Positions 15,443 through 32,405 of a stretch of 64,000 bases of DNA are shown here, one piece after another. The notes beneath the pieces were generated by a model. That model did no database searches. It saw only the letters and a list, made by a program, of their open reading frames with translations, and had not been told where the DNA came from. Each line of letters begins with the position of its first letter. Position 1 is the first letter of the stretch. The translations under genes were made by a program, and so were the position numbers. Origin of the DNA: a virus (lineage: Duplodnaviria; Heunggongvirae; Uroviricota; Caudoviricetes); IMG/VR virus record IMGVR_UViG_3300023174_000034; one strand, written 5' to 3'.

Positions 15443-15471
15443 TTGACAACAGGTGCAAATAAATATATACT
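15443..15471 (+). promoter_or_regulatory. Sigma70 promoter (TTGACA-N17-TATACT) for the tmRNA precursor.
   Basis: Near-consensus boxes about 7 nt upstream of the tRNA-like acceptor piece. Confidence 0.55.
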
Positions 15472-15477
15472 GTAGGT

Positions 15478-15543
<66 letters not shown>

Positions 15544-15725
15544 AAGGAAATTTGTGAAAAGTAAGAGTAAGTTCAGTCGTTATAATCTTAAAGGCAATAT
15601 TATGTGGTGCCTAAATTTGCGTAACGGATGGGTAAGAATTTACAACACTATGATTCGTTGGAATACCGATTGGACAACTAATTATAGATACTTTTCAATA
15701 GAACAAATAAAAGTTTCTTTATGAT

Positions 15726-15978
15726 GGGGGTGACCTGGCTTTCGACAGGGCAAAGAGTAAACAAGTGGACAGCACGGTAAGGCAGAAACCGTAGGGTTGG
15801 GGGAACTCGGCCGTAGACGCAAAAAACGTAAATGCAAAAGCAAATACAACATCTGGTGTTAAAGTAACAGTAGGCAAAGGTTTCCGTTTCGGCGGTTCCA
15901 AGTCTGCTCGCACTGAGGCAGCTTTCGCCTAAACAGCGAAACCAGCGGGGTAGGACTTACCTTGTAAAATAAACAACC
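15726..15978 (+). ncRNA. ssrA: tmRNA coding piece: 5' acceptor strand, tag reading frame 15819-15932 and 3' helices.
   Basis: Starts GGGGGUGACCUGGCUUUCGACAGGG (compare E. coli GGGGCUGAUUCUGGAUUCGACGGG). GGGGGUG pairs with CACCUCC of the upstream piece, giving a G3:U70 wobble. Resume context UAGAC-GCA (E. coli UAGUC-GCA). The frame stays open to TAA. Confidence 0.7.
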
Positions 15979-16001
15979 ATGGGCCTCCGGGCCCATTTTT
16001 C
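15979..16001 (+). terminator. Rho-independent terminator (ATGGGCCtccgGGCCCAT + TTTTT) ending the tmRNA precursor.
   Basis: 7-bp stem followed by a T5 run. Confidence 0.65.
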
Positions 16002-16002
16002 T

Positions 16003-16251
16003 ATGCTAGAATATATCTTAACCTTCCTTGCCGTGTTCTTACTGGACGTGGTCTACACATACTATCTGCGATGCGTCAAAGATGGTCGTGTGTTGATGGC
16101 CAGCGGCTGGAGTGTGGCCTGTTACATTGGTGGAAGTGTGGCAGTTATCAATTATACATCGGACCACTGGATGCTGATACCTGCGGCAATAGGCGCCTTT
16201 TGCGGAACCTATGTGGGCATGAAGATCAACGTCGCATCAGTTGATCAGTAA
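16003..16251 (+). CDS. Small membrane protein (about 82 aa).
   Basis: Two predicted TM helices. The ORF track starts at 15979 inside the terminator, so the ATG at 16003 is more plausible. Confidence 0.4.
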   Translation: MLEYILTFLAVFLLDVVYTYYLRCVKDGRVLMASGWSVACYIGGSVAVINYTSDHWMLIPAAIGAFCGTYVGMKINVASVDQ

Positions 16252-16960
16252 ATTCCAACAGTAACTCATGATGTCTACGCTCATGCCAGTGTGGCTTGAG
16301 ATAATTGTAATTGTACCAAAACTGTTCGCTTTCGGGATGGCAACCAATTATGCCAATCCTTTTCTGATATATAGCCATGGCGTCACCATTGGCATAGGTG
16401 GCAACTGTTTGATACCGTCCGGGTCCTACCAAAGCGCATCCGTCATAAAAAAACATCCTTTCGGATGTGCCGTTCCATGTCACTGCCAGTGCCTTTGCAT
16501 GTGGGCGGCGTGTGTCTGTGCCGGGCTGTGTGATGTACTGCACAGCATCTACTCCATCTAGTATGTTGAAGTAGTTTGACCCTGCCCAGTAGGCACCCAT
16601 ACAGATTCCCAAATAATAGCCGCCACGACCAACAAAGTCCAACACTTTCTTTTTGTTGGGTTTTAATATCTTGTGCCAGCTGTCCGAATCGCCGATGCCG
16701 CCCGGAAATGCCACCATGTCCACATCATCAAAAAACACATCTTCGACTTCATTTTTGCTGAATACTTTGAAGTGATAATACTGCCCAAGCGCCTGCATCA
16801 TTCCATTTCCACACTGGACTGAGCACTTGGGATCATTGATATACAGGGCAATAGTGGGCTTCACAAGCGTATTTATAAAAGCAAATGTTACAAGCCGTGT
16901 AATATTACGGATTCCTTTTTTACAGCCCGAATGCTTAAATAATAAAAAGGGCGCCTTCAA
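16226..16960 (-). CDS. Class-I glutamine amidotransferase-like / peptidase C26-like hydrolase.
   Basis: Nucleophile elbow GGYYLGICMGAYWAG (G-x-C-x-G) and GCHPE His-Glu motif. Confidence 0.5.
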   Translation of the reverse strand: MKAPFLLFKHSGCKKGIRNITRLVTFAFINTLVKPTIALYINDPKCSVQCGNGMMQALGQYYHFKVFSKNEVEDVFFDDVDMVAFPGGIGDSDSWHKILKPNKKKVLDFVGRGGYYLGICMGAYWAGSNYFNILDGVDAVQYITQPGTDTRRPHAKALAVTWNGTSERMFFYDGCALVGPGRYQTVATYANGDAMAIYQKRIGIIGCHPESEQFWYNYNYLKPHWHERRHHELLLEFTDQLMRR

Positions 16961-18300: not shown

Positions 18301-19185
18301 ATGCAGAAAACTTATCGTAGCATTTTTATTTCTGACGTACACCTTGGCACTCGAGACTGCAAGGCCGAGGCTCTCAACAATTTCCTTAAACACAATTCAT
18401 GTGAATCGCTTTATCTAGTGGGTGACATCATTGATGCCTGGAAGATACAGCAAAACAAATGGCGGTGGAAACAGAGCCATACCAATGTTGTGCGTAGGGT
18501 GCTAGGTCATGCCAAACGCGGTACTCGAGTTATCTATGTAGCTGGCAACCACGATGAGTTTTTACGCCCAATGATACCATATGGTTTTTCATTTGGCATG
18601 ATAGAGATACACAATCAGATAGAACACATAGGTGCAGACGGTCGGCACTATCTTGTGGTACACGGCGACTTGTTTGACGGTATCACTAGACTGGCCCCTT
18701 GGCTCAGCTTTTTAGGAGACAAAGCATATGATATCATTCTTGCGCTCAATTCAAAATTTAATTGGATCCGTCACAGACTGGGTTTTGGGTACTTTAGTCT
18801 TAGTCGTTATCTTAAGCACCGAGTAAAAAAAGCAGTAGACTTCATATTCAAATTTGAAGAAAATCTAGCAGGCTACTGCAAAAAGCGTGGCTTTGACGGT
18901 GTGATATGTGGACACATACATCATGCTGAGATCAAAGACATCAACGGTATAGTATACATGAACGATGGCGACTGGGTAGAAAGCTGTACAGCACTGGTAG
19001 AGCATCACGATGGTCGTTGGGAGATTGTGACATGGACACAGGAGAAAGACAATGTGGCTGATGATCCTGATAGCAGTACACATCAACGACCCGCAAGATC
19101 AACCCGGAAGAGTAGAAATGCAGTTTCCGGATCAGCCAACATGCCAAGCGGCATTGAGCACAATCAAGTGGCAACTAAAGTTTAA
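18301..19185 (+). CDS. Calcineurin-like metallophosphoesterase of the LpxH (UDP-2,3-diacylglucosamine hydrolase) type.
   Basis: SDVHLG, GDIIDAW (LpxH GDLFEAW), GNHDEFL and HGDLFDG blocks in LpxH order. Confidence 0.55.
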   Translation: MQKTYRSIFISDVHLGTRDCKAEALNNFLKHNSCESLYLVGDIIDAWKIQQNKWRWKQSHTNVVRRVLGHAKRGTRVIYVAGNHDEFLRPMIPYGFSFGMIEIHNQIEHIGADGRHYLVVHGDLFDGITRLAPWLSFLGDKAYDIILALNSKFNWIRHRLGFGYFSLSRYLKHRVKKAVDFIFKFEENLAGYCKKRGFDGVICGHIHHAEIKDINGIVYMNDGDWVESCTALVEHHDGRWEIVTWTQEKDNVADDPDSSTHQRPARSTRKSRNAVSGSANMPSGIEHNQVATKV

Positions 19186-19206: not shown

Positions 19207-20211
19207 ATGCAAAAAACAATCTTAGTAGTTACTGACAACTTACCGGAGCAGATCAATGGTGTGGTTACGACCTACAAAAATATTGAGGCGTGTGCTGTTC
19301 GTGACGGTTATAACTTTGTGGTGTTGGATCCCGGGCGGTTCAGCTACATTGATTGCCCTGGCTACAACGAAGTCAAGATTGCCTATCCGCGGAACTTGGG
19401 CGAGAAGATTAAGGAGATATCTCCGGATTATATCCACGTCGCCACAGAGGGTCCTCTTGGTCTGTGGGCTAGAGCATATCTTTCACTGGCTGGTATTCGC
19501 CACAATACCGCTTATCATACTAAGTTTCCTGAAGGCCTGAAAAAGTTATTTGGTATTCCAGAATGTATTACCTGGCGTTTTGTACGCTGGTTTCACAAGC
19601 ACTCGGGCAAGGTACTGACCACAACGGACAGCATGGTAACAGAGTTGCAAGCACATGGTTTTGACGGCGAAGTTATTCCCTGGACACGTGGTGTTGACCG
19701 TGACATATTCCATCCAGCACACAGGGTACAAACAACCAGCCGATATCTCTTGTGTGTGAGCAGAGTAAGCAAGGAAAAGAATCTAGAAGCATTCTTTGAA
19801 ATGGACTTTCCTGGCTATCTCAAAATCATGGTAGGCGATGGTCCCATGCTAGAAACATATCGTAAACGCTATCCTGATGTGCATTTCACAGGATTCAAAA
19901 CAGGTGTAGATCTAGCACGTTATTATGCCAACGCAGAAGTGTTTGTGTTTCCCAGTGAATGGGAAACTTTTGGTATTGTGATGATTGAAGCCATGGCCTG
20001 TGGCACACCTGTTGCGGCTTTTCCTGTGCAAGGACCAGAAGATGTGGTTGATGAAGGTGTAACAGGTTGCCTAAATGACAACCTAAAGCAAGCAGTCCGT
20101 GATGCTCTCATGCTGGACCGTAGACTTGTCTGGAACGGCAGTGCTCGATGGTCGTGGGAACGTGCCTGGGATATTTTCCGAAATAATTTGGTCTCAGTAA
20201 CAAAACCGTAA
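19207..20211 (+). CDS. Family GT4 (GT-B fold) glycosyltransferase.
   Basis: EWETFGIVMIEAMACGTPV (E-x7-E motif). Confidence 0.75.
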   Translation: MQKTILVVTDNLPEQINGVVTTYKNIEACAVRDGYNFVVLDPGRFSYIDCPGYNEVKIAYPRNLGEKIKEISPDYIHVATEGPLGLWARAYLSLAGIRHNTAYHTKFPEGLKKLFGIPECITWRFVRWFHKHSGKVLTTTDSMVTELQAHGFDGEVIPWTRGVDRDIFHPAHRVQTTSRYLLCVSRVSKEKNLEAFFEMDFPGYLKIMVGDGPMLETYRKRYPDVHFTGFKTGVDLARYYANAEVFVFPSEWETFGIVMIEAMACGTPVAAFPVQGPEDVVDEGVTGCLNDNLKQAVRDALMLDRRLVWNGSARWSWERAWDIFRNNLVSVTKP

Positions 20212-20280: not shown

Positions 20281-20307
20281 AAGACAACTTCGGTTGTCTT
20301 TCTTTTG
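20281..20307 (+). terminator. Rho-independent terminator (AAGACAACttcgGTTGTCTT + TCTTTTG).
   Basis: 8-bp stem with a UUCG loop, followed by a T-run. Confidence 0.55.
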
Positions 20308-20333
20308 ACTAGTCACTGCACACAATATATAAT
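20305..20333 (+). promoter_or_regulatory. Sigma70-like promoter (TTGACT-N17-TATAAT) overlapping the terminator T-tract.
   Basis: Consensus boxes with 17-nt spacing, upstream of the OMP gene. Confidence 0.5.
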
Positions 20334-20377: not shown

Positions 20378-20824
20378 ATGAAGAAGTTAATTGCAATGGC
20401 CCTAATTTTGGCCGCAGGCGCCGCAAGCGCATTTGAAGTTGGTGTAACAGGCACACGTGACTATTCTGGTACAGACCGCAATGGTGGTGGTATCACCATT
20501 GGTGAAAAAGTCGGTAGCATTGGTGTTACAGCAGGCTTTGAGCGTTTTACATCTGGTTCAAACGACCAAGACCGTTACAGCGTTGTGGCCGGCTATGATG
20601 TTGCCAAATTTGGTCCAGTCACTGTTACTCCAAAAGTTGGCGTAGCATACTTGAACAACCAAACTGGTTCTGATGGTTATGCACTAACTGTTGGTGTTGG
20701 TGCCAGCGTTCCTGTGGCACAGAAGATTAGCCTAGGCCTAGACTATGCACGTCAATATGGTCAAGACCGTGTTAATTCATTCGACGGCAATCGCGTTACT
20801 GTCAGCGCACGTTACGCATTCTAA
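20378..20824 (+). CDS. Small outer-membrane beta-barrel protein (OmpW/Ail/OmpX-like) with a signal peptide.
   Basis: Signal MKKLIAMALILAAGAASA. Alternating hydrophobic strands. C-terminal ARYAF ending in Phe. Confidence 0.5.
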   Translation: MKKLIAMALILAAGAASAFEVGVTGTRDYSGTDRNGGGITIGEKVGSIGVTAGFERFTSGSNDQDRYSVVAGYDVAKFGPVTVTPKVGVAYLNNQTGSDGYALTVGVGASVPVAQKISLGLDYARQYGQDRVNSFDGNRVTVSARYAF

Positions 20825-20845
20825 TCTCAACTTGATTAGTCCAAA

Positions 20846-20870
20846 GGCCCTTGACGGGGCCTTTCTTTTT
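20846..20870 (+). terminator. Rho-independent terminator (GGCCCttgacGGGGCC + TTTCTTTTT).
   Basis: GC stem followed by a T-run. Confidence 0.5.
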
Positions 20871-20879
20871 GTGTATAAT
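20851..20879 (+). promoter_or_regulatory. Sigma70-like promoter (TTGACG-N17-TATAAT) embedded in the terminator.
   Basis: The -35 box lies in the hairpin loop. The -10 box is 17 nt downstream. Precedes rubrerythrin. Confidence 0.45.
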
Positions 20880-20902
20880 ATCTACTATCGAAGGAGAATC
20901 AA

Positions 20903-21367
20903 ATGCCATTAGAAAAATCATCAATCACATTGGAAAACCTTGCCAGTGCCCTGGCCGGTGAAAGCCAAGCACACATCAAGTATCGCTACTTTGCAAAAAT
21001 TGCCAGAGAAGAAGGCCACGAAGAAGTAGCCCAGCACTTTGAGCACACCGCAGATCAAGAACTGTTACATGCCTGGGGACATTTGGAATTGCTAGTTGGC
21101 AAGCCAGATACTCGCAAGTGCCTGGAAATGGCCATTGAAGGTGAGACATATGAGTTCACCACTATGTATCCAGGATTTGAACAGCAGGCACGTGCCGAAA
21201 ACGATCGTACTGCACAGTATGAGTTTCGCAATCAGATTGTTGAAAGCACAGAACATGCTGAACAGTTCAAGTCAGTGCTGGCCAAAGCTGAAAAGCGTTT
21301 TGCCGCACTCAAGCGAGTTGAACAGCGTCATGCCAACGCATACACACAAGTATTGGAGAGTCTATAA
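20903..21367 (+). CDS. Rubrerythrin-like ferritin-fold diiron protein without a fused rubredoxin domain.
   Basis: ExxH-type motifs (GESQAHIKY, ELLHAWGH, EGETYEF, EHAEQF). Confidence 0.6.
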   Translation: MPLEKSSITLENLASALAGESQAHIKYRYFAKIAREEGHEEVAQHFEHTADQELLHAWGHLELLVGKPDTRKCLEMAIEGETYEFTTMYPGFEQQARAENDRTAQYEFRNQIVESTEHAEQFKSVLAKAEKRFAALKRVEQRHANAYTQVLESL

Positions 21368-21501
21368 TGCCTGAAACACACGTATGCGTGGTATGTGGCC
21401 ACGAACATGATGAAGCACTAGAAGGTGCATGGAACGATCTGCCCGAGGACTTTGTTTGCCCTGAGTGCGGTTGTGGCAAAGAAGACTACGAGGCACTATA
21501 A
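21367..21501 (+). CDS. Rubredoxin (44 aa).
   Basis: VCVVCGHEHDE...FVCPECGC gives two CxxC knuckles. TAATG overlap with rubrerythrin. Absent from the ORF track because it is under 60 aa. Confidence 0.7.
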   Translation: MPETHVCVVCGHEHDEALEGAWNDLPEDFVCPECGCGKEDYEAL

Positions 21502-21920
21502 TGTTAGAATGCTTGATACTTGGAGATTCAATAGCAGTAGGCACATCACAGGCTAGACCTGAGTGTGTGAGTTATAGCAAAGGCGGATGGAATAGCTGGC
21601 AATGGAATAAAGACTATCTTGTCAAAGCATCAACTCAATTAGCTAAAACTGTGATTATCAGCCTCGGCGCCAATGACCATAAGGGTGTAAAGACTGAGCA
21701 AGAACTACGTAAGATGCGCGAAGCTATCAATGGCGATCGTGTGTACTGGATTGATCCGGGACAGGATCGTAAACCTATTCCACACGATGCAATCGTTCGT
21801 ATTGCTAAAGAGTACGGGGATACAATCATTGCTCGACCTAAAAATCACATGAGTGCTGACGGTGTACATCCTACCGGTACCGGATACAAAATGATTGCTG
21901 AGCAAACAAAAGGCAAGTGA
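21501..21920 (+). CDS. SGNH/GDSL-family hydrolase.
   Basis: Block I LILGDSIAVG, GANDH, block V DGVHPTGTGY. Confidence 0.55.
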   Translation: MLECLILGDSIAVGTSQARPECVSYSKGGWNSWQWNKDYLVKASTQLAKTVIISLGANDHKGVKTEQELRKMREAINGDRVYWIDPGQDRKPIPHDAIVRIAKEYGDTIIARPKNHMSADGVHPTGTGYKMIAEQTKGK

Positions 21921-22141
21921 TGCAAATGAGAGTAAAAGAAAACCCCAGTGATGTTGGCCGTTGTGGCTGTGGTCGTAGCCCAAGTGGCTACTGCTGTGGG
22001 TGGCATGGCCTTACAGAAGCAGAATACAAAAACGAACTTGCGTTGTATGAATACAAGAAGCAAGCACAAGCATTATGGAATGACAGTTGCACCAGCCCAA
22101 GGGCAGAACCACCTGTTGAGAGTGAAGGCGGAGAAATCTAA
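21917..22141 (+). CDS. Small Cys-rich protein (RCGCGRSPSGYCCGWHG).
   Basis: ORF coupled to the previous gene by an ATGA overlap. Confidence 0.4.
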   Translation: MMQMRVKENPSDVGRCGCGRSPSGYCCGWHGLTEAEYKNELALYEYKKQAQALWNDSCTSPRAEPPVESEGGEI

Positions 22142-22371
22142 TGCCATACAATTTCAAGATAGCAATGAACGCAACCATTAGTCCTGTAGTAGTTGAAGAA
22201 ATGATTCGTGCCGCAGTCGAGAATCAAACAGGTAAAAAGATTACCAAAGTTGAAATCCAAATGGACGATGATGGCAAATTTGCTGGCTATGCTGTGAACT
22301 TTGATGAGGTCAGCGCCAAGCACGTCATTGCCGGAATCCCTGACAGGACCTTTGTTCCGGACACCTACTAA
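22141..22371 (+). CDS. Hypothetical small protein.
   Basis: Coupled ORF (ATGA overlap). Confidence 0.4.
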   Translation: MPYNFKIAMNATISPVVVEEMIRAAVENQTGKKITKVEIQMDDDGKFAGYAVNFDEVSAKHVIAGIPDRTFVPDTY

Positions 22372-25645: not shown

Positions 25646-26363
25646 GATTGTAGTGTGTGGAGACAGCTTCAACACCTACGACACCAGATACCCAGGCCTG
25701 CACTGGGCAGATCAATTGGCGCCACATGAAGTTTATAGACTGGCTCGTGCCGGCGCCAGTAACTTTTCAATCTGGCATCAGGTCGTGCAAAGCAAAAAGT
25801 TCAATCCCGATGTGGTGTTGGTGTCATTTACCAGCTGTCCCAGGGTAGAATTTGCCATTGCAGAGCCAGACTTTTTTAGTGATATTCTTGTGCCGTGGGT
25901 GCAAAGCACAGGGCGTGTGGTGTGGAATAACATTGTTAACATCAAGTATGTGGAAAAGCCCACAGCAAACCTACGCGAACTTGAAGCCAAGCTAAGGAAG
26001 AAAATGGAAGAGTCAATCGACCATGCCATTCCAGCTGGTTACAAGACTGAAGTGTTCAATGACTGGGCACGTAAGTTTTACATAGAACCATTTGAAGTAC
26101 TTAAAAACTATCTGTACATCAAGGCCACCTTGGATTATTTGGAACAAGCCGGCATCCGGTACTATGCAACTCTTGGCGGGTACACAGACTTTGTTGGAAC
26201 TGCAACTCAAGAGATCTGCATCGAATTTGAAAAATATGCAAGTGTGCTAAAACTGCCAAACGGTTGGGACCACGAACAGAAACTTGCTGATCCTTATTTC
26301 CATATTGAAGATCCTGTATACCACAAGAACCATGCAGATCTTGTGCTAAAGCTATTGTCATGA
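25638..26363 (+). CDS. Possible second SGNH-type hydrolase.
   Basis: N-terminal VVCGDSF (GDS block). Confidence 0.4.
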   Translation: MSRIVVCGDSFNTYDTRYPGLHWADQLAPHEVYRLARAGASNFSIWHQVVQSKKFNPDVVLVSFTSCPRVEFAIAEPDFFSDILVPWVQSTGRVVWNNIVNIKYVEKPTANLRELEAKLRKKMEESIDHAIPAGYKTEVFNDWARKFYIEPFEVLKNYLYIKATLDYLEQAGIRYYATLGGYTDFVGTATQEICIEFEKYASVLKLPNGWDHEQKLADPYFHIEDPVYHKNHADLVLKLLS

Positions 26364-27091
26364 TCCCCAAGCTATTGATACAAACTTCGCCAAATGCCAG
26401 GCCTGATCCTGCGTTACGCAGGCACCTGGTGGCTCAGCTTGGTCCGGGCTGGACCTATAGGTATTTCACTGATGCAGATATACTGGAATACTTCCGTGAC
26501 AATCCATTGGTTGGATACGAAAACATTGAACGCCGTTGGCATGCCATGCCATCCGGTCCACTCAAGGCAGACTTGTTTAGGTATTATTTTCTCTATGTCA
26601 ACGGCGGCGTATTTTTAGACTATGATGCCATGATCTACACAGGCCTATCCGGGTACTGTGAGCAATATGACTTGTTCTCAGTAGCAACCAATGATGCCAA
26701 GATGTTCAACGGGTTCGTTGGATGCAGGCCACTCAGCCCAATTATGAAAACCATGTTACACGATGCGTATTGGGTGAATGTTGTTGTGTTGTCCAATCGA
26801 CATCATCTGCTACTTGAGAATATGAACAAGATTGTGCGTGGGCACACAGGATCCGAAAAAATATTCCTTTTTGGTGAGCATGTAAACGACACTCAAGGAA
26901 TTGTAGTTGACAACAATACCCAGGTTGCTGTACACTACTACAAGCACAAAGTGATCCCAAACCCAGGAGTAATAAAATTATGGAAATTGTATATAACACA
27001 GCCCCAGATGATCTGGATGTGGACAGTCGCAATCGTGAAATCCGTCTCATGTTACATCACGGCGTGTGTGAAATCACCTTTACCAAGGTAA
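26360..27091 (+). CDS. Glycosyltransferase with a DXD sugar-binding region (Och1/TcdA-like Gly_transf_sug).
   Basis: DADILEYFRD...ADLFRYYFLYVNGGVFLDYD. Confidence 0.55.
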   Translation: MIPKLLIQTSPNARPDPALRRHLVAQLGPGWTYRYFTDADILEYFRDNPLVGYENIERRWHAMPSGPLKADLFRYYFLYVNGGVFLDYDAMIYTGLSGYCEQYDLFSVATNDAKMFNGFVGCRPLSPIMKTMLHDAYWVNVVVLSNRHHLLLENMNKIVRGHTGSEKIFLFGEHVNDTQGIVVDNNTQVAVHYYKHKVIPNPGVIKLWKLYITQPQMIWMWTVAIVKSVSCYITACVKSPLPR

Positions 27092-31607: not shown

Positions 31608-32405
31608 ATGCGTATTTTGACTCTTTCCGTCCTTGCCGCGGCTGTGCTAGCAACAGGTTGTACTCGTATTGAAACTGGTGAAGTTGGTCTCCGTGTGGGT
31701 TTTGACAAGCAGGTCAAAACTGAGGAACTGCTCCCAGGCTCTTTTAATCAAACTATCATTGGTGATGTTATCACATTCCCAACCAAAGAGATCACTGTTA
31801 AAGTTGAAGACATGACTCCACTGGCCAAGGATAACAGCACAATGAAAGACTTTGATGCTATGATCACATACAACATCAATCAAGCACAAGTGGCTGAGAT
31901 CTACAACAGCAAGAACAAAAGTTTCCATGCCAAACACGATGGCGATGTTTACTTGATGTACAACTATGTGTTCAATGCCACACGCAATGCCATCTACAAG
32001 AGTGCTCGCAAGTTCGAAGCATTGGAAATGGGCGATGCTCGTCAAGCAATGGAAACTGAAATCAAAGAGCAAGTGATCAAGACCCTAGCAGAGGAAAAGC
32101 TAGACGGTACTATCATTATCAGCCAAGTGTTGATTCGTAACATTGTGCCTGCTGACAGTGTGGTGCTGAGTGCCAACGAATTGGTCAAGGCCAAGAACGA
32201 GTACAAGACTGAAGAAGTCAAAGTAGCCACTGCTCGCAAGCGCAACGAGTCCATGCAGGCCAACCCAATGGCAATTCCATTGCTCAAAGCCGAAGCTGAA
32301 GCAGACGCCATGCGAGCCTTGCCAAATGCCATCGCGGCCTTCAAAGGGCAGACCCTGGTGATCAATGGTGTGGTGACTCCAACTGTACAAACTAATAGCA
32401 AATAA
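31608..32405 (+). CDS. SPFH/band-7 (prohibitin/HflKC-like) lipoprotein.
   Basis: Lipobox LATGC after a signal peptide. IETGEVGLRVGF resembles the SPFH N-terminal strand. Confidence 0.55.
   Translation: MRILTLSVLAAAVLATGCTRIETGEVGLRVGFDKQVKTEELLPGSFNQTIIGDVITFPTKEITVKVEDMTPLAKDNSTMKDFDAMITYNINQAQVAEIYNSKNKSFHAKHDGDVYLMYNYVFNATRNAIYKSARKFEALEMGDARQAMETEIKEQVIKTLAEEKLDGTIIISQVLIRNIVPADSVVLSANELVKAKNEYKTEEVKVATARKRNESMQANPMAIPLLKAEAEADAMRALPNAIAAFKGQTLVINGVVTPTVQTNSK

Follow-up and report, generated by a model that had tools for sequence, protein, structure and literature searches.

We analysed a gene pair in a 64,000-nucleotide (nt) stretch of viral DNA (Caudoviricetes; IMG/VR record IMGVR_UViG_3300023174_000034), which we refer to, at its full length, as the window. 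The first gene, rbr, encodes a predicted 154-amino-acid (aa) one-domain rubrerythrin, and the second, rd, encodes a predicted 44-aa shortened rubredoxin (Table 1). The A that ends the rbr stop codon (TAA, 21365-21367) also begins the rd start codon (ATG, 21367-21369), so that the genes overlap by one nucleotide as TAATG. Both open reading frames (ORFs) are exactly as described in an earlier reading of the DNA made by a model from its letters (the sequence-only reading), which had also held that the pair is missed by a 60-aa ORF cut-off; this is true of the 44-aa ORF but not of the 154-aa ORF, which lies above the cut-off. Phage genes in the window include those for RIIA, a DNA ligase (ATP-dependent) and structural proteins of the tail and virion, among them ORFs of 2255, 1043 and 1853 aa. 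The exact Rbr and Rd protein sequences were found on a contig of 373,949 bp, with close relatives on contigs of 345-369 kb; the genome that carries the pair is that of a jumbo phage of ~374 kb. Megablast searches of GenBank phages with the 8 kb around the pair returned no match.

Profile searches placed both products in the expected families. Rbr scored 60.2 bits against Pfam Rubrerythrin PF02915 (E = 3.7e-16; cut-off 22.8), and Rd scored 32.9 bits against Pfam Rubredoxin PF00301 (E = 6.6e-08; cut-off 23). Identity of Rbr as a generic ferritin or Dps with incomplete diiron ligands was rejected, as its score against Ferritin PF00210 (21.3 bits) fell under the cut-off of 24.5 and its ligand set is full: E20, E53xxH56, E81xxE84 and E140xxH143 make up the complete E, ExxH, ExxE, ExxH pattern, and none of these Glu and His residues varies among 81 phage sequences or in the cyanobacterial relatives. 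Rbr is thus predicted to be a rubrerythrin-family diiron protein. Its ORF ends at residue 154 with neither Cys motifs nor a fused rubredoxin-like domain. Rd carries C7xxC10G and C31PxC34G, with all four Cys invariant in 80/80 sequences, and it scored just 14.5 bits against PF21349, the short rubrerythrin-type rubredoxin domain; we therefore classify it as a predicted true rubredoxin rather than the short type. Scores against two NCBIfam equivalogs fell below their cut-offs (Rbr against classical rubrerythrin NF045767, 74.5 bits vs 200, over profile positions 5-147; Rd against rubredoxin NF045768, 38 bits vs 90), consistent with a one-domain rubrerythrin and an undersized rubredoxin. The nearest solved structures to Rbr were those of Burkholderia pseudomallei (4di0 and 9onm) and sulerythrin (1j30), with E values of 1e-20 to 1e-22, all of them rubrerythrins that lack a rubredoxin domain. 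The best Protein Data Bank (PDB) match of Rd was 2v3b_B, rubredoxin 2, which we take to be the Pseudomonas aeruginosa rubredoxin crystallised together with its reductase. Rd also matched the natural 45-46-aa rubredoxins 6rxn and 6nw0, which suggests that its short loop is a size variant with precedent.

Relatives of rbr were present on at least 270 IMG/VR contigs, and 80 of these loci were fetched for comparison. rd lay directly 3' of rbr in 79/80 loci, the exception being a contig that ends 45 nt past rbr, and the genes overlapped by 1 or 4 nt (TAATG-type or ATGA-type) in 70 of the 79 loci with both genes. Flanking genes vary from phage to phage and the pair alone stays together. These results demonstrate that rbr-rd is a conserved, selected module of this phage lineage, paired far beyond chance. 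Ratios of nonsynonymous to synonymous substitution (dN/dS) relative to the window were 0.04-0.15 in the closest pairs, with medians of 0.11 (rbr) and 0.13 (rd) in a comparison where synonymous sites are saturated in most pairs; the ratios indicate purifying selection and a function retained in phage. A neighbour-joining tree grouped the phage rbr sequences (72-97% identity) as one clade in 200/200 bootstraps, apart from both cellular groups described below. One 20-kb contig assigned to a metagenome-assembled genome (MAG) of 'uncultured Aquiluna sp.' (L081; CAZKLA010000025.1) falls inside this clade. Its pair is of the phage type (74% identity; a short rubredoxin with a spacing of 20) and no reductase accompanies it; the contig is probably of phage origin and wrongly binned into an actinobacterial MAG.

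The sequence-only reading had called a phage-borne rubrerythrin unusual. This holds for isolates: a rubrerythrin homologue occurs in 8 of 50,697 GenBank phage records (all ≤48% identity), rubredoxin matches in these records numbered four and were weak, and no PHROGs family matched either protein. It does not hold for metagenomic viral contigs, in which the pair is common, and rarity is therefore limited to sequenced isolates. Annotation by the IMG and NCBI pipelines already gives these genes or their close relatives the correct names, rubrerythrin and rubredoxin. Our literature search found no paper on a phage rubrerythrin-rubredoxin pair.

Cellular relatives came from a scan with one genome per bacterial species. 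A one-domain type of ~150 aa with 55-66% identity to Rbr was found in Beta- and Gammaproteobacteria (Aquabacterium, Polynucleobacter, Undibacterium, Noviherbaspirillum, Aromatoleum, Gallionella, Rhodoferax and Moraxellaceae). In 76/80 loci, rbr is followed after 40-300 nt by a gene for a full-length rubredoxin; the other four loci end 46-186 nt past rbr and so could not be scored. In 67/70 scoreable loci the gene after that codes for an FAD oxidoreductase, matched best in NCBIfam by NorW (flavorubredoxin reductase), and an OxyR-like LysR regulator lies 5' in 28/65 loci, 23 of them in divergent orientation. Dps stands between rubredoxin and reductase in four loci (L094, L107, L114 and L144; Gallionella, Nitrosomonadales-type). 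In Polynucleobacter, an Fe-superoxide dismutase and an OYE-type reductase also lie near the operon, and the pair itself (Pnuc_1376 and Pnuc_1377) has been listed among oxidative-stress genes (PMC3308952). We found nothing in the literature linking rubrerythrin, rubredoxin reductase and OxyR.

More distant relatives (44-51% identity) are cyanobacterial proteins of 232-240 aa that carry this domain and a complete rubredoxin in one chain (P0155 and >100 others). RbrA (Alr1174 type, 237 aa) is of this kind: it shares with the phage protein the diiron domain, all ligands and the ESxEH motif, and its rubredoxin partner is likewise a true, long-spaced one. It differs in that the rubredoxin is joined to the C-terminus by a linker of ~13-25 residues, in a longer helix B-C loop and in FNR as its reported reductant, whereas in phage the diiron domain and rubredoxin are separate polypeptides. 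Passages of Cardenas et al. (2016, PMC5114695) unite two clades, one of fused proteins in cyanobacteria and one of one-domain proteins in proteobacteria, as 'group 5 / cyanobacterial-type' rubrerythrins and describe this lineage as the rubrerythrin of aerobes and facultative bacteria; those searched make no mention of an adjacent free rubredoxin gene. Because Rbr is closer in identity to the proteobacterial than to the cyanobacterial forms and shares with them ESxEH and a C-terminal ExxH, its sequence places it in the proteobacterial one-domain clade of group 5. The pair is of bacterial (host) origin and represents an ordinary auxiliary module rather than a new kind of system, and the tree does not single out a bacterial donor group (cellular monophyly in 64/200 bootstraps).

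This placement revises two points of the sequence-only reading. The pair had been described as a split classical rubrerythrin, yet separate genes are native to the proteobacterial relatives and the partner is a true rubredoxin. A microaerophilic host had also been suggested; in the passages of PMC5114695 cited above, however, the lineage is tied to aerobes and facultative bacteria, and it therefore gives no support for such a host. The likeness to Burkholderiales-type operons is a weak hint at the phage host.

The phage locus resembles the proteobacterial group 5 operon in its rbr-then-rd order, in the diiron domain and in an elongated C-terminal part with both of the E/H motifs discussed below. 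Its rubredoxin is altered. The canonical size is 52-54 aa with CxxC-29-CxxC, and the operon rubredoxins (~54 aa) have a spacing of 29 in 75/75 cases, whereas the spacing in phage is 20 (71/80, including the window) or 17 (9/80), i.e., the loop is shorter by 9-12 residues. The residue after the first CxxCG is His in 78/80 phage sequences and Phe, Tyr or Trp in all cellular partners but one. The cellular intergenic gap is collapsed to an overlap. No NorW/RubB-type reductase or regulator gene accompanies the pair, as neither gave a tblastn match in the 64-kb window or the 80 phage loci. A single-sequence scan for a rubredoxin reductase found no match on IMG/VR contigs of the lineage, and a reductase profile scan of IMG/VR found only 20-29% identical matches, on unrelated contigs. 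Pfam scans of 20 neighbouring ORFs revealed no other redox or iron genes. Together, these comparisons suggest that the phage pair is a truncated, phage-adapted form of the cellular rbr-rd-reductase operon, which is widespread among Beta- and Gammaproteobacteria.

Two E/H motifs of Rbr compete for the last Glu/His pair of the predicted diiron site. Motif 1, E114-S-T-E-H118, lies at exactly the distance from E84 of the fourth-helix ligands in sulerythrin, and HMMER sets S115 opposite sulerythrin E126 and H118 opposite H129, i.e., a Ser stands at the canonical Glu position. It belongs to an additional invariant polar cluster (E107, Q111, E114, S115 and H118; nt 21221-21256) common to the group 5 lineage. 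Motif 2, F133...E140-x-x-H143-A-N-x-Y147, is a perfect canonical ExxH motif. An AlphaFold2 model of Rbr (shallow alignment; predicted local distance difference test, pLDDT, 76.5) shows a turn at 99-101 followed by a single 52-residue helix and, together with the HMMER alignments, sets S115 and H118 at the canonical fourth-helix positions. In contrast, a model of the fused homologue P0155 (79 sequences; pLDDT 90.7; predicted template modelling score, pTM, 0.82) extends helix C to 47 residues, places the turn at the equivalent of Rbr residues 110-112 and ends in a long helix. Counted from this turn, the C-terminal ExxH stands at the height of the ligands on helix C, and ESxEH is close to the end of a hairpin that protrudes. 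Divergent relatives that lack motif 1 still retain motif 2. Because the deeper-alignment P0155 model and these divergent relatives agree, we favour E20, E53, H56, E81, E84, E140 and H143 as the candidate diiron ligands. On the same two grounds, we gave less weight to a reading in which the ESTEH helix serves as canonical helix four and its Glu is shifted.

Superposition of either model worked well on domain-swapped rubrerythrins in their open protomer form (Pyrococcus furiosus and sulerythrin; template modelling score, TM, ~0.7) and poorly on the closed Desulfovibrio vulgaris form (TM 0.3-0.4). The B-C loop of Rbr has only ~4 residues, and this short loop and the open-protomer superposition suggest that Rbr may form a swapped dimer. 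In PDB comparisons, no solved structure from the group 5 lineage covers the second-motif region, and no solved rubrerythrin shows the elongated C-D helical hairpin predicted for this lineage. One reading of the E107/Q111/E114/S115/H118 cluster is that it forms a second site, either for an inter-subunit metal or for rubredoxin or reductase docking and electron entry, and that the miniaturised His-rubredoxin is co-adapted to another host reductase. We regard this as doubtful; if true, the pair would be mechanistically distinct from textbook rubrerythrins.

We propose that rbr-rd is probably a host-derived auxiliary module that forms the terminal part of an NAD(P)H-dependent hydrogen peroxide (H2O2) reductase and relies on a host reductase for electrons. 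The 154-aa diiron protein would reduce H2O2 to water, and the 44-aa rubredoxin, with its Fe(Cys)4 centre, would be its dedicated one-electron donor. In the cellular operon, electrons would pass from NADH to the FAD reductase, then to rubredoxin, the diiron site and H2O2. The phage appears to have retained just rbr and rd, joined as a putative translationally coupled unit behind a putative strong sigma-70-type promoter, and its electrons would presumably come from a host rubredoxin reductase or from another host reductase such as FNR. Such a module could increase peroxide removal in the infected cell, free of host OxyR control, over the long replication of a jumbo phage. The peroxidase chemistry is inferred from homology, and the electron route, the reliance on a host enzyme and the gain for the phage are inferred as well. 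That rbr and rd work together is suggested by their adjacency in phage and cellular loci and by the cyanobacterial fusion. Peroxide detoxification is likely because RbrA of Anabaena is described in a passage of PMC6616624 (citing Zhao et al. 2007) as a strong NADPH peroxidase that shields nitrogenase from H2O2, and because the cellular operon includes a reductase and often an OxyR-like gene. The peroxide-detoxifying role assigned by the sequence-only reading therefore seems likely to stand, but the unit would be incomplete, as no reductase gene lies alongside.

Several points weigh against this proposal. Every functional claim for the pair rests on homology. The reductase scans relied on short peptide patterns, and the window covers 64 kb of the ~374-kb genome, so a divergent reductase could lie elsewhere. 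The phage rubredoxin is altered by its loop deletion and its His, so its compatibility with a host reductase is an assumption. The electron route may also differ from the one proposed, because FNR can reduce the RbrA diiron domain directly, without its rubredoxin centre (a passage of PMC6616624). The two AlphaFold models differ on the helix that gives the last Glu/His pair. Finally, the rbr promoter is a consensus match that is not strictly conserved in related phages: a strict TTGACN-16..18-TAnnnT occurs 5' of rbr in 8/78 related loci against a background of ~5%, so conservation of the promoter cannot be claimed.

An alternative, which we consider unlikely, is that the diiron protein performs other ferritin-superfamily chemistry (as an O2 oxidase, in ferroxidation and iron sequestration, or in metal buffering) and that the rubredoxin is a general donor. 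One-domain rubrerythrins are chemically versatile; that of B. pseudomallei, the closest solved relative by sequence, binds metals promiscuously, as reported in parts of a preprint (10.1101/2025.06.01.657255), and sulerythrin structures have been solved with Fe, Mn, Co and Ni. The extra invariant cluster of the lineage and the presence of Dps in some of the bacterial operons also fit such chemistry. However, the Pfam Ferritin score is under its cut-off, the sole characterised member of the lineage (RbrA) is a peroxidase, and a dedicated one-electron donor with a reductase and a frequent OxyR-like gene suits catalytic turnover better than storage. A further option takes up the suggestion of the sequence-only reading that phage Fe-S proteins are protected: the pair might mainly protect or re-reduce one phage or host metalloenzyme on which replication depends, such as a diiron ribonucleotide reductase or an Fe-S enzyme, rather than clear peroxide in bulk. 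The role of RbrA in protecting one sensitive enzyme, nitrogenase (a passage of PMC6616624), lends this some appeal, as does the lone rubrerythrin that Pelagibacter phage Mosig carries among its replication genes. Yet the surroundings of the pair in the window yielded no gene for a ribonucleotide reductase, an Fe-S enzyme or any other redox protein, and its neighbours vary between phages, so no fixed client is indicated. We give this option little credence, and it is a variant of the peroxide-reductase proposal more than a true alternative.

Two other explanations fare worse. In Gammaproteobacteria, alkane hydroxylases receive electrons from RubA/RubB-type pairs of rubredoxin and reductase, and with this precedent rbr and rd might be unrelated neighbours, the rubredoxin having a different acceptor (for example, an alkane hydroxylase or an enzyme of the flavodiiron type); the NorW match of the cellular reductase points the same way. 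This is very improbable given that the genes remain adjacent in 79/80 phage and 76/80 cellular loci despite shuffled surroundings, that they overlap in most phage loci and that the domains are fused in cyanobacteria; moreover, Pfam scans of the neighbouring ORFs revealed no candidate alternative acceptor near the pair. The notion that the pair is host DNA, either mis-assembled or a decaying passenger useless to the phage, draws on the clearly bacterial origin of the genes (57-66% identity to Burkholderiales and related bacteria) and is effectively refuted. Phage genes (RIIA, DNA ligase, tail and virion proteins) flank the pair on both sides, contigs of 345-374 kb encode these proteins too, the phage sequences make up a diverged, monophyletic clade with dN/dS of ~0.1, and the overlapping genes and shortened rubredoxin are derived phage features.

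The peroxide-reductase module that we propose also differs from other known rubrerythrins. The aerobic-type forms, sulerythrin (1j30) and the B. pseudomallei protein (4di0 and 9onm), resemble the phage protein in having no rubredoxin domain, and the predicted Rbr protomer superposes on their open, domain-swapped form. They are 140-144 aa long, however, their C-D hairpin is of the short canonical kind and they have just one ExxH at the C-terminus, and the HMMER alignment of Rbr to the Burkholderia protein ends near residue 100. Their partners are DUF3501 and an Fe-S oxidoreductase rather than rubredoxin (passages of Cardenas et al. 2016, PMC5114695), and both were absent from the Pfam scans of ORFs neighbouring the phage pair. 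Classical D. vulgaris rubrerythrin (1ryt/1b71) shares the diiron four-helix chemistry, the ligand pattern and a rubredoxin-type Fe(Cys)4 donor; its own features are a fused, short-spaced PF21349 domain and a closed, non-swapped bundle (TM to the model, 0.38), and this form is described, again in passages of PMC5114695, mainly from anaerobes. One of the eight GenBank phage records noted above is that of a cultured phage, Mosig (MT647606.1, 107716-108141; L176), which encodes a lone 141-aa aerobic-type 'putative rubrerythrin' with no rubredoxin beside it, which is 47.6% identical to Rbr over residues 5-100 only; the gene lies between those for a gp59-like protein and an ssDNA-binding protein. 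Reports on viromes from anaerobic digesters and fumaroles (PMC13644194 and PMC13436329) count rubrerythrin among the auxiliary genes of viruses, and the digester phage proteins cluster with anaerobic-bacterial homologues. Like the window pair, the Mosig, digester and fumarole genes are phage-encoded and read as oxidative-stress auxiliary genes, but none is an rbr-rd pair.

With this pair, the genes known from large environmental phages gain a clear and well-conserved example of an auxiliary module for oxidative stress. The pair also shows what a phage keeps, a putative terminal peroxidase and its donor, and what it drops, the reductase and regulator. The natural 41-44-residue rubredoxins and the coupled gene pair also offer minimal parts useful for biochemistry. 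Two features of group 5 are not stated in the literature that we searched, namely that the proteobacterial one-domain rubrerythrins nearly always adjoin their own rubredoxin and reductase genes, and that a second E/H motif is invariant throughout the lineage. Neither alters the current view of how rubrerythrins work, and the main interest lies in the clean minimisation of the module and in this second motif common to the whole lineage.

Expression signals and surrounding features are collected in Table 1. The 78-nt gap 5' of rbr holds both a terminator-like hairpin and a promoter-like site that overlaps it. The hairpin, with 9 pairs (5 G-C), a 4-nt loop and a T-rich tail, would close the upstream outer-membrane-protein-like gene. 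The sequence-only reading had given the pair its own promoter, and the near-consensus site supports this. Transcription probably extends past the pair, because start/stop overlaps run on into three more ORFs. These ORFs are probably co-transcribed with rbr-rd and fall outside the conserved module: the SGNH gene occurs in just 9/80 related loci at varying positions, and in one of them (L037, 4447-4856) it lies between rbr and rd. Three more promoter-like sites with 11/12 consensus positions occur in the 6-kb region, each in an intergenic gap before + strand genes.

Table 1. Positions in the window of the rbr-rd pair, its putative expression signals and nearby features.
Feature	Position	Strand	Description
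rbr	20903..21367	+	Predicted 154-aa one-domain rubrerythrin, ATG start, 'group 5 / cyanobacterial-type' lineage
rd	21367..21501	+	Predicted 44-aa shortened rubredoxin, C7xxC10-(20 residues)-C31xxC34
Shine-Dalgarno-like AAGGAG	20891..20896	+	6 nt 5' of rbr ATG; read from sequence
Shine-Dalgarno-like GGAGAG	21355..21360	+	Within rbr 3' end, 6 nt 5' of rd ATG; read from sequence
Terminator-like hairpin	20843..20864	+	AAAGGCCC-TTGA-CGGGGCCTTT then CTTTTTGT; consensus match
Sigma-70-type promoter-like site	20851..20879	+	TTGACG-17 nt-TATAAT; 11/12 consensus positions; overlaps hairpin; consensus match
Three overlap-chained ORFs	21501..22371	+	3' of rd; chained by start/stop overlaps (TAATG/GTGA)
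SGNH/GDSL-like ORF	21501-21920	+	Starts on TAATG overlap with rd stop; Lipase_GDSL_2 28.7 bits, below 32.9 cut-off
74-aa ORF	21917-22141	+	Overlap-chained 3' of SGNH/GDSL-like ORF
76-aa ORF	22141-22371	+	Overlap-chained, last of the three ORFs
148-aa ORF	20378-20824	+	Directly 5' of the pair; signal-peptide-like N-terminus
Promoter-like site of 148-aa ORF	20305-20333		
Metallophosphoesterase	18301-19185	+	Calcineurin-like
GT4 glycosyltransferase	19207-20211	+	
Permuted (two-piece) tmRNA	15481-15932	+	Rfam RF04321, full model
Permuted tmRNA, ARAGORN call	15450-16023		
Biotin-protein-ligase-like protein	16226-16960	-	N-terminal-like domain of biotin-protein ligase
DXD-motif glycosyltransferase	26360-27091	+	
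SPFH/Band-7 protein	31608-32405	+	

The 148-aa ORF directly upstream of the pair weakly matches beta-barrel families of the outer membrane, with scores below threshold (OMP_b-brl, 20.2 bits; YfaZ), and, with its own promoter-like site and terminator-like hairpin, could be a phage outer-membrane protein cassette. The calcineurin-like metallophosphoesterase and GT4 glycosyltransferase genes before it also occur together in several related loci (L001, L026, L046 and L059), at positions that vary relative to rbr-rd. Further away, the window encodes a second glycosyltransferase with a DXD motif, an SPFH/Band-7 protein and a protein with a biotin-protein-ligase N-terminal-like domain.

The window also contains a permuted transfer-messenger RNA (tmRNA), which scored 96.6 bits in Rfam (gathering score 47) and was called by ARAGORN as well. 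Two-piece tmRNAs are found in Alphaproteobacteria, some Betaproteobacteria and some Cyanobacteria, and this RNA may hint at the phage host. Among the homologues of Rbr are proteins of 650-1957 aa with 3-8 tandem rubrerythrin-domain matches and 35-43% identity to the query (P0121-P0127, P0137, P0138, P0140 and P0143). We know of no such tandem multi-rubrerythrin-domain architecture, and these could be real multidomain proteins or artefacts of assembly or gene calling.

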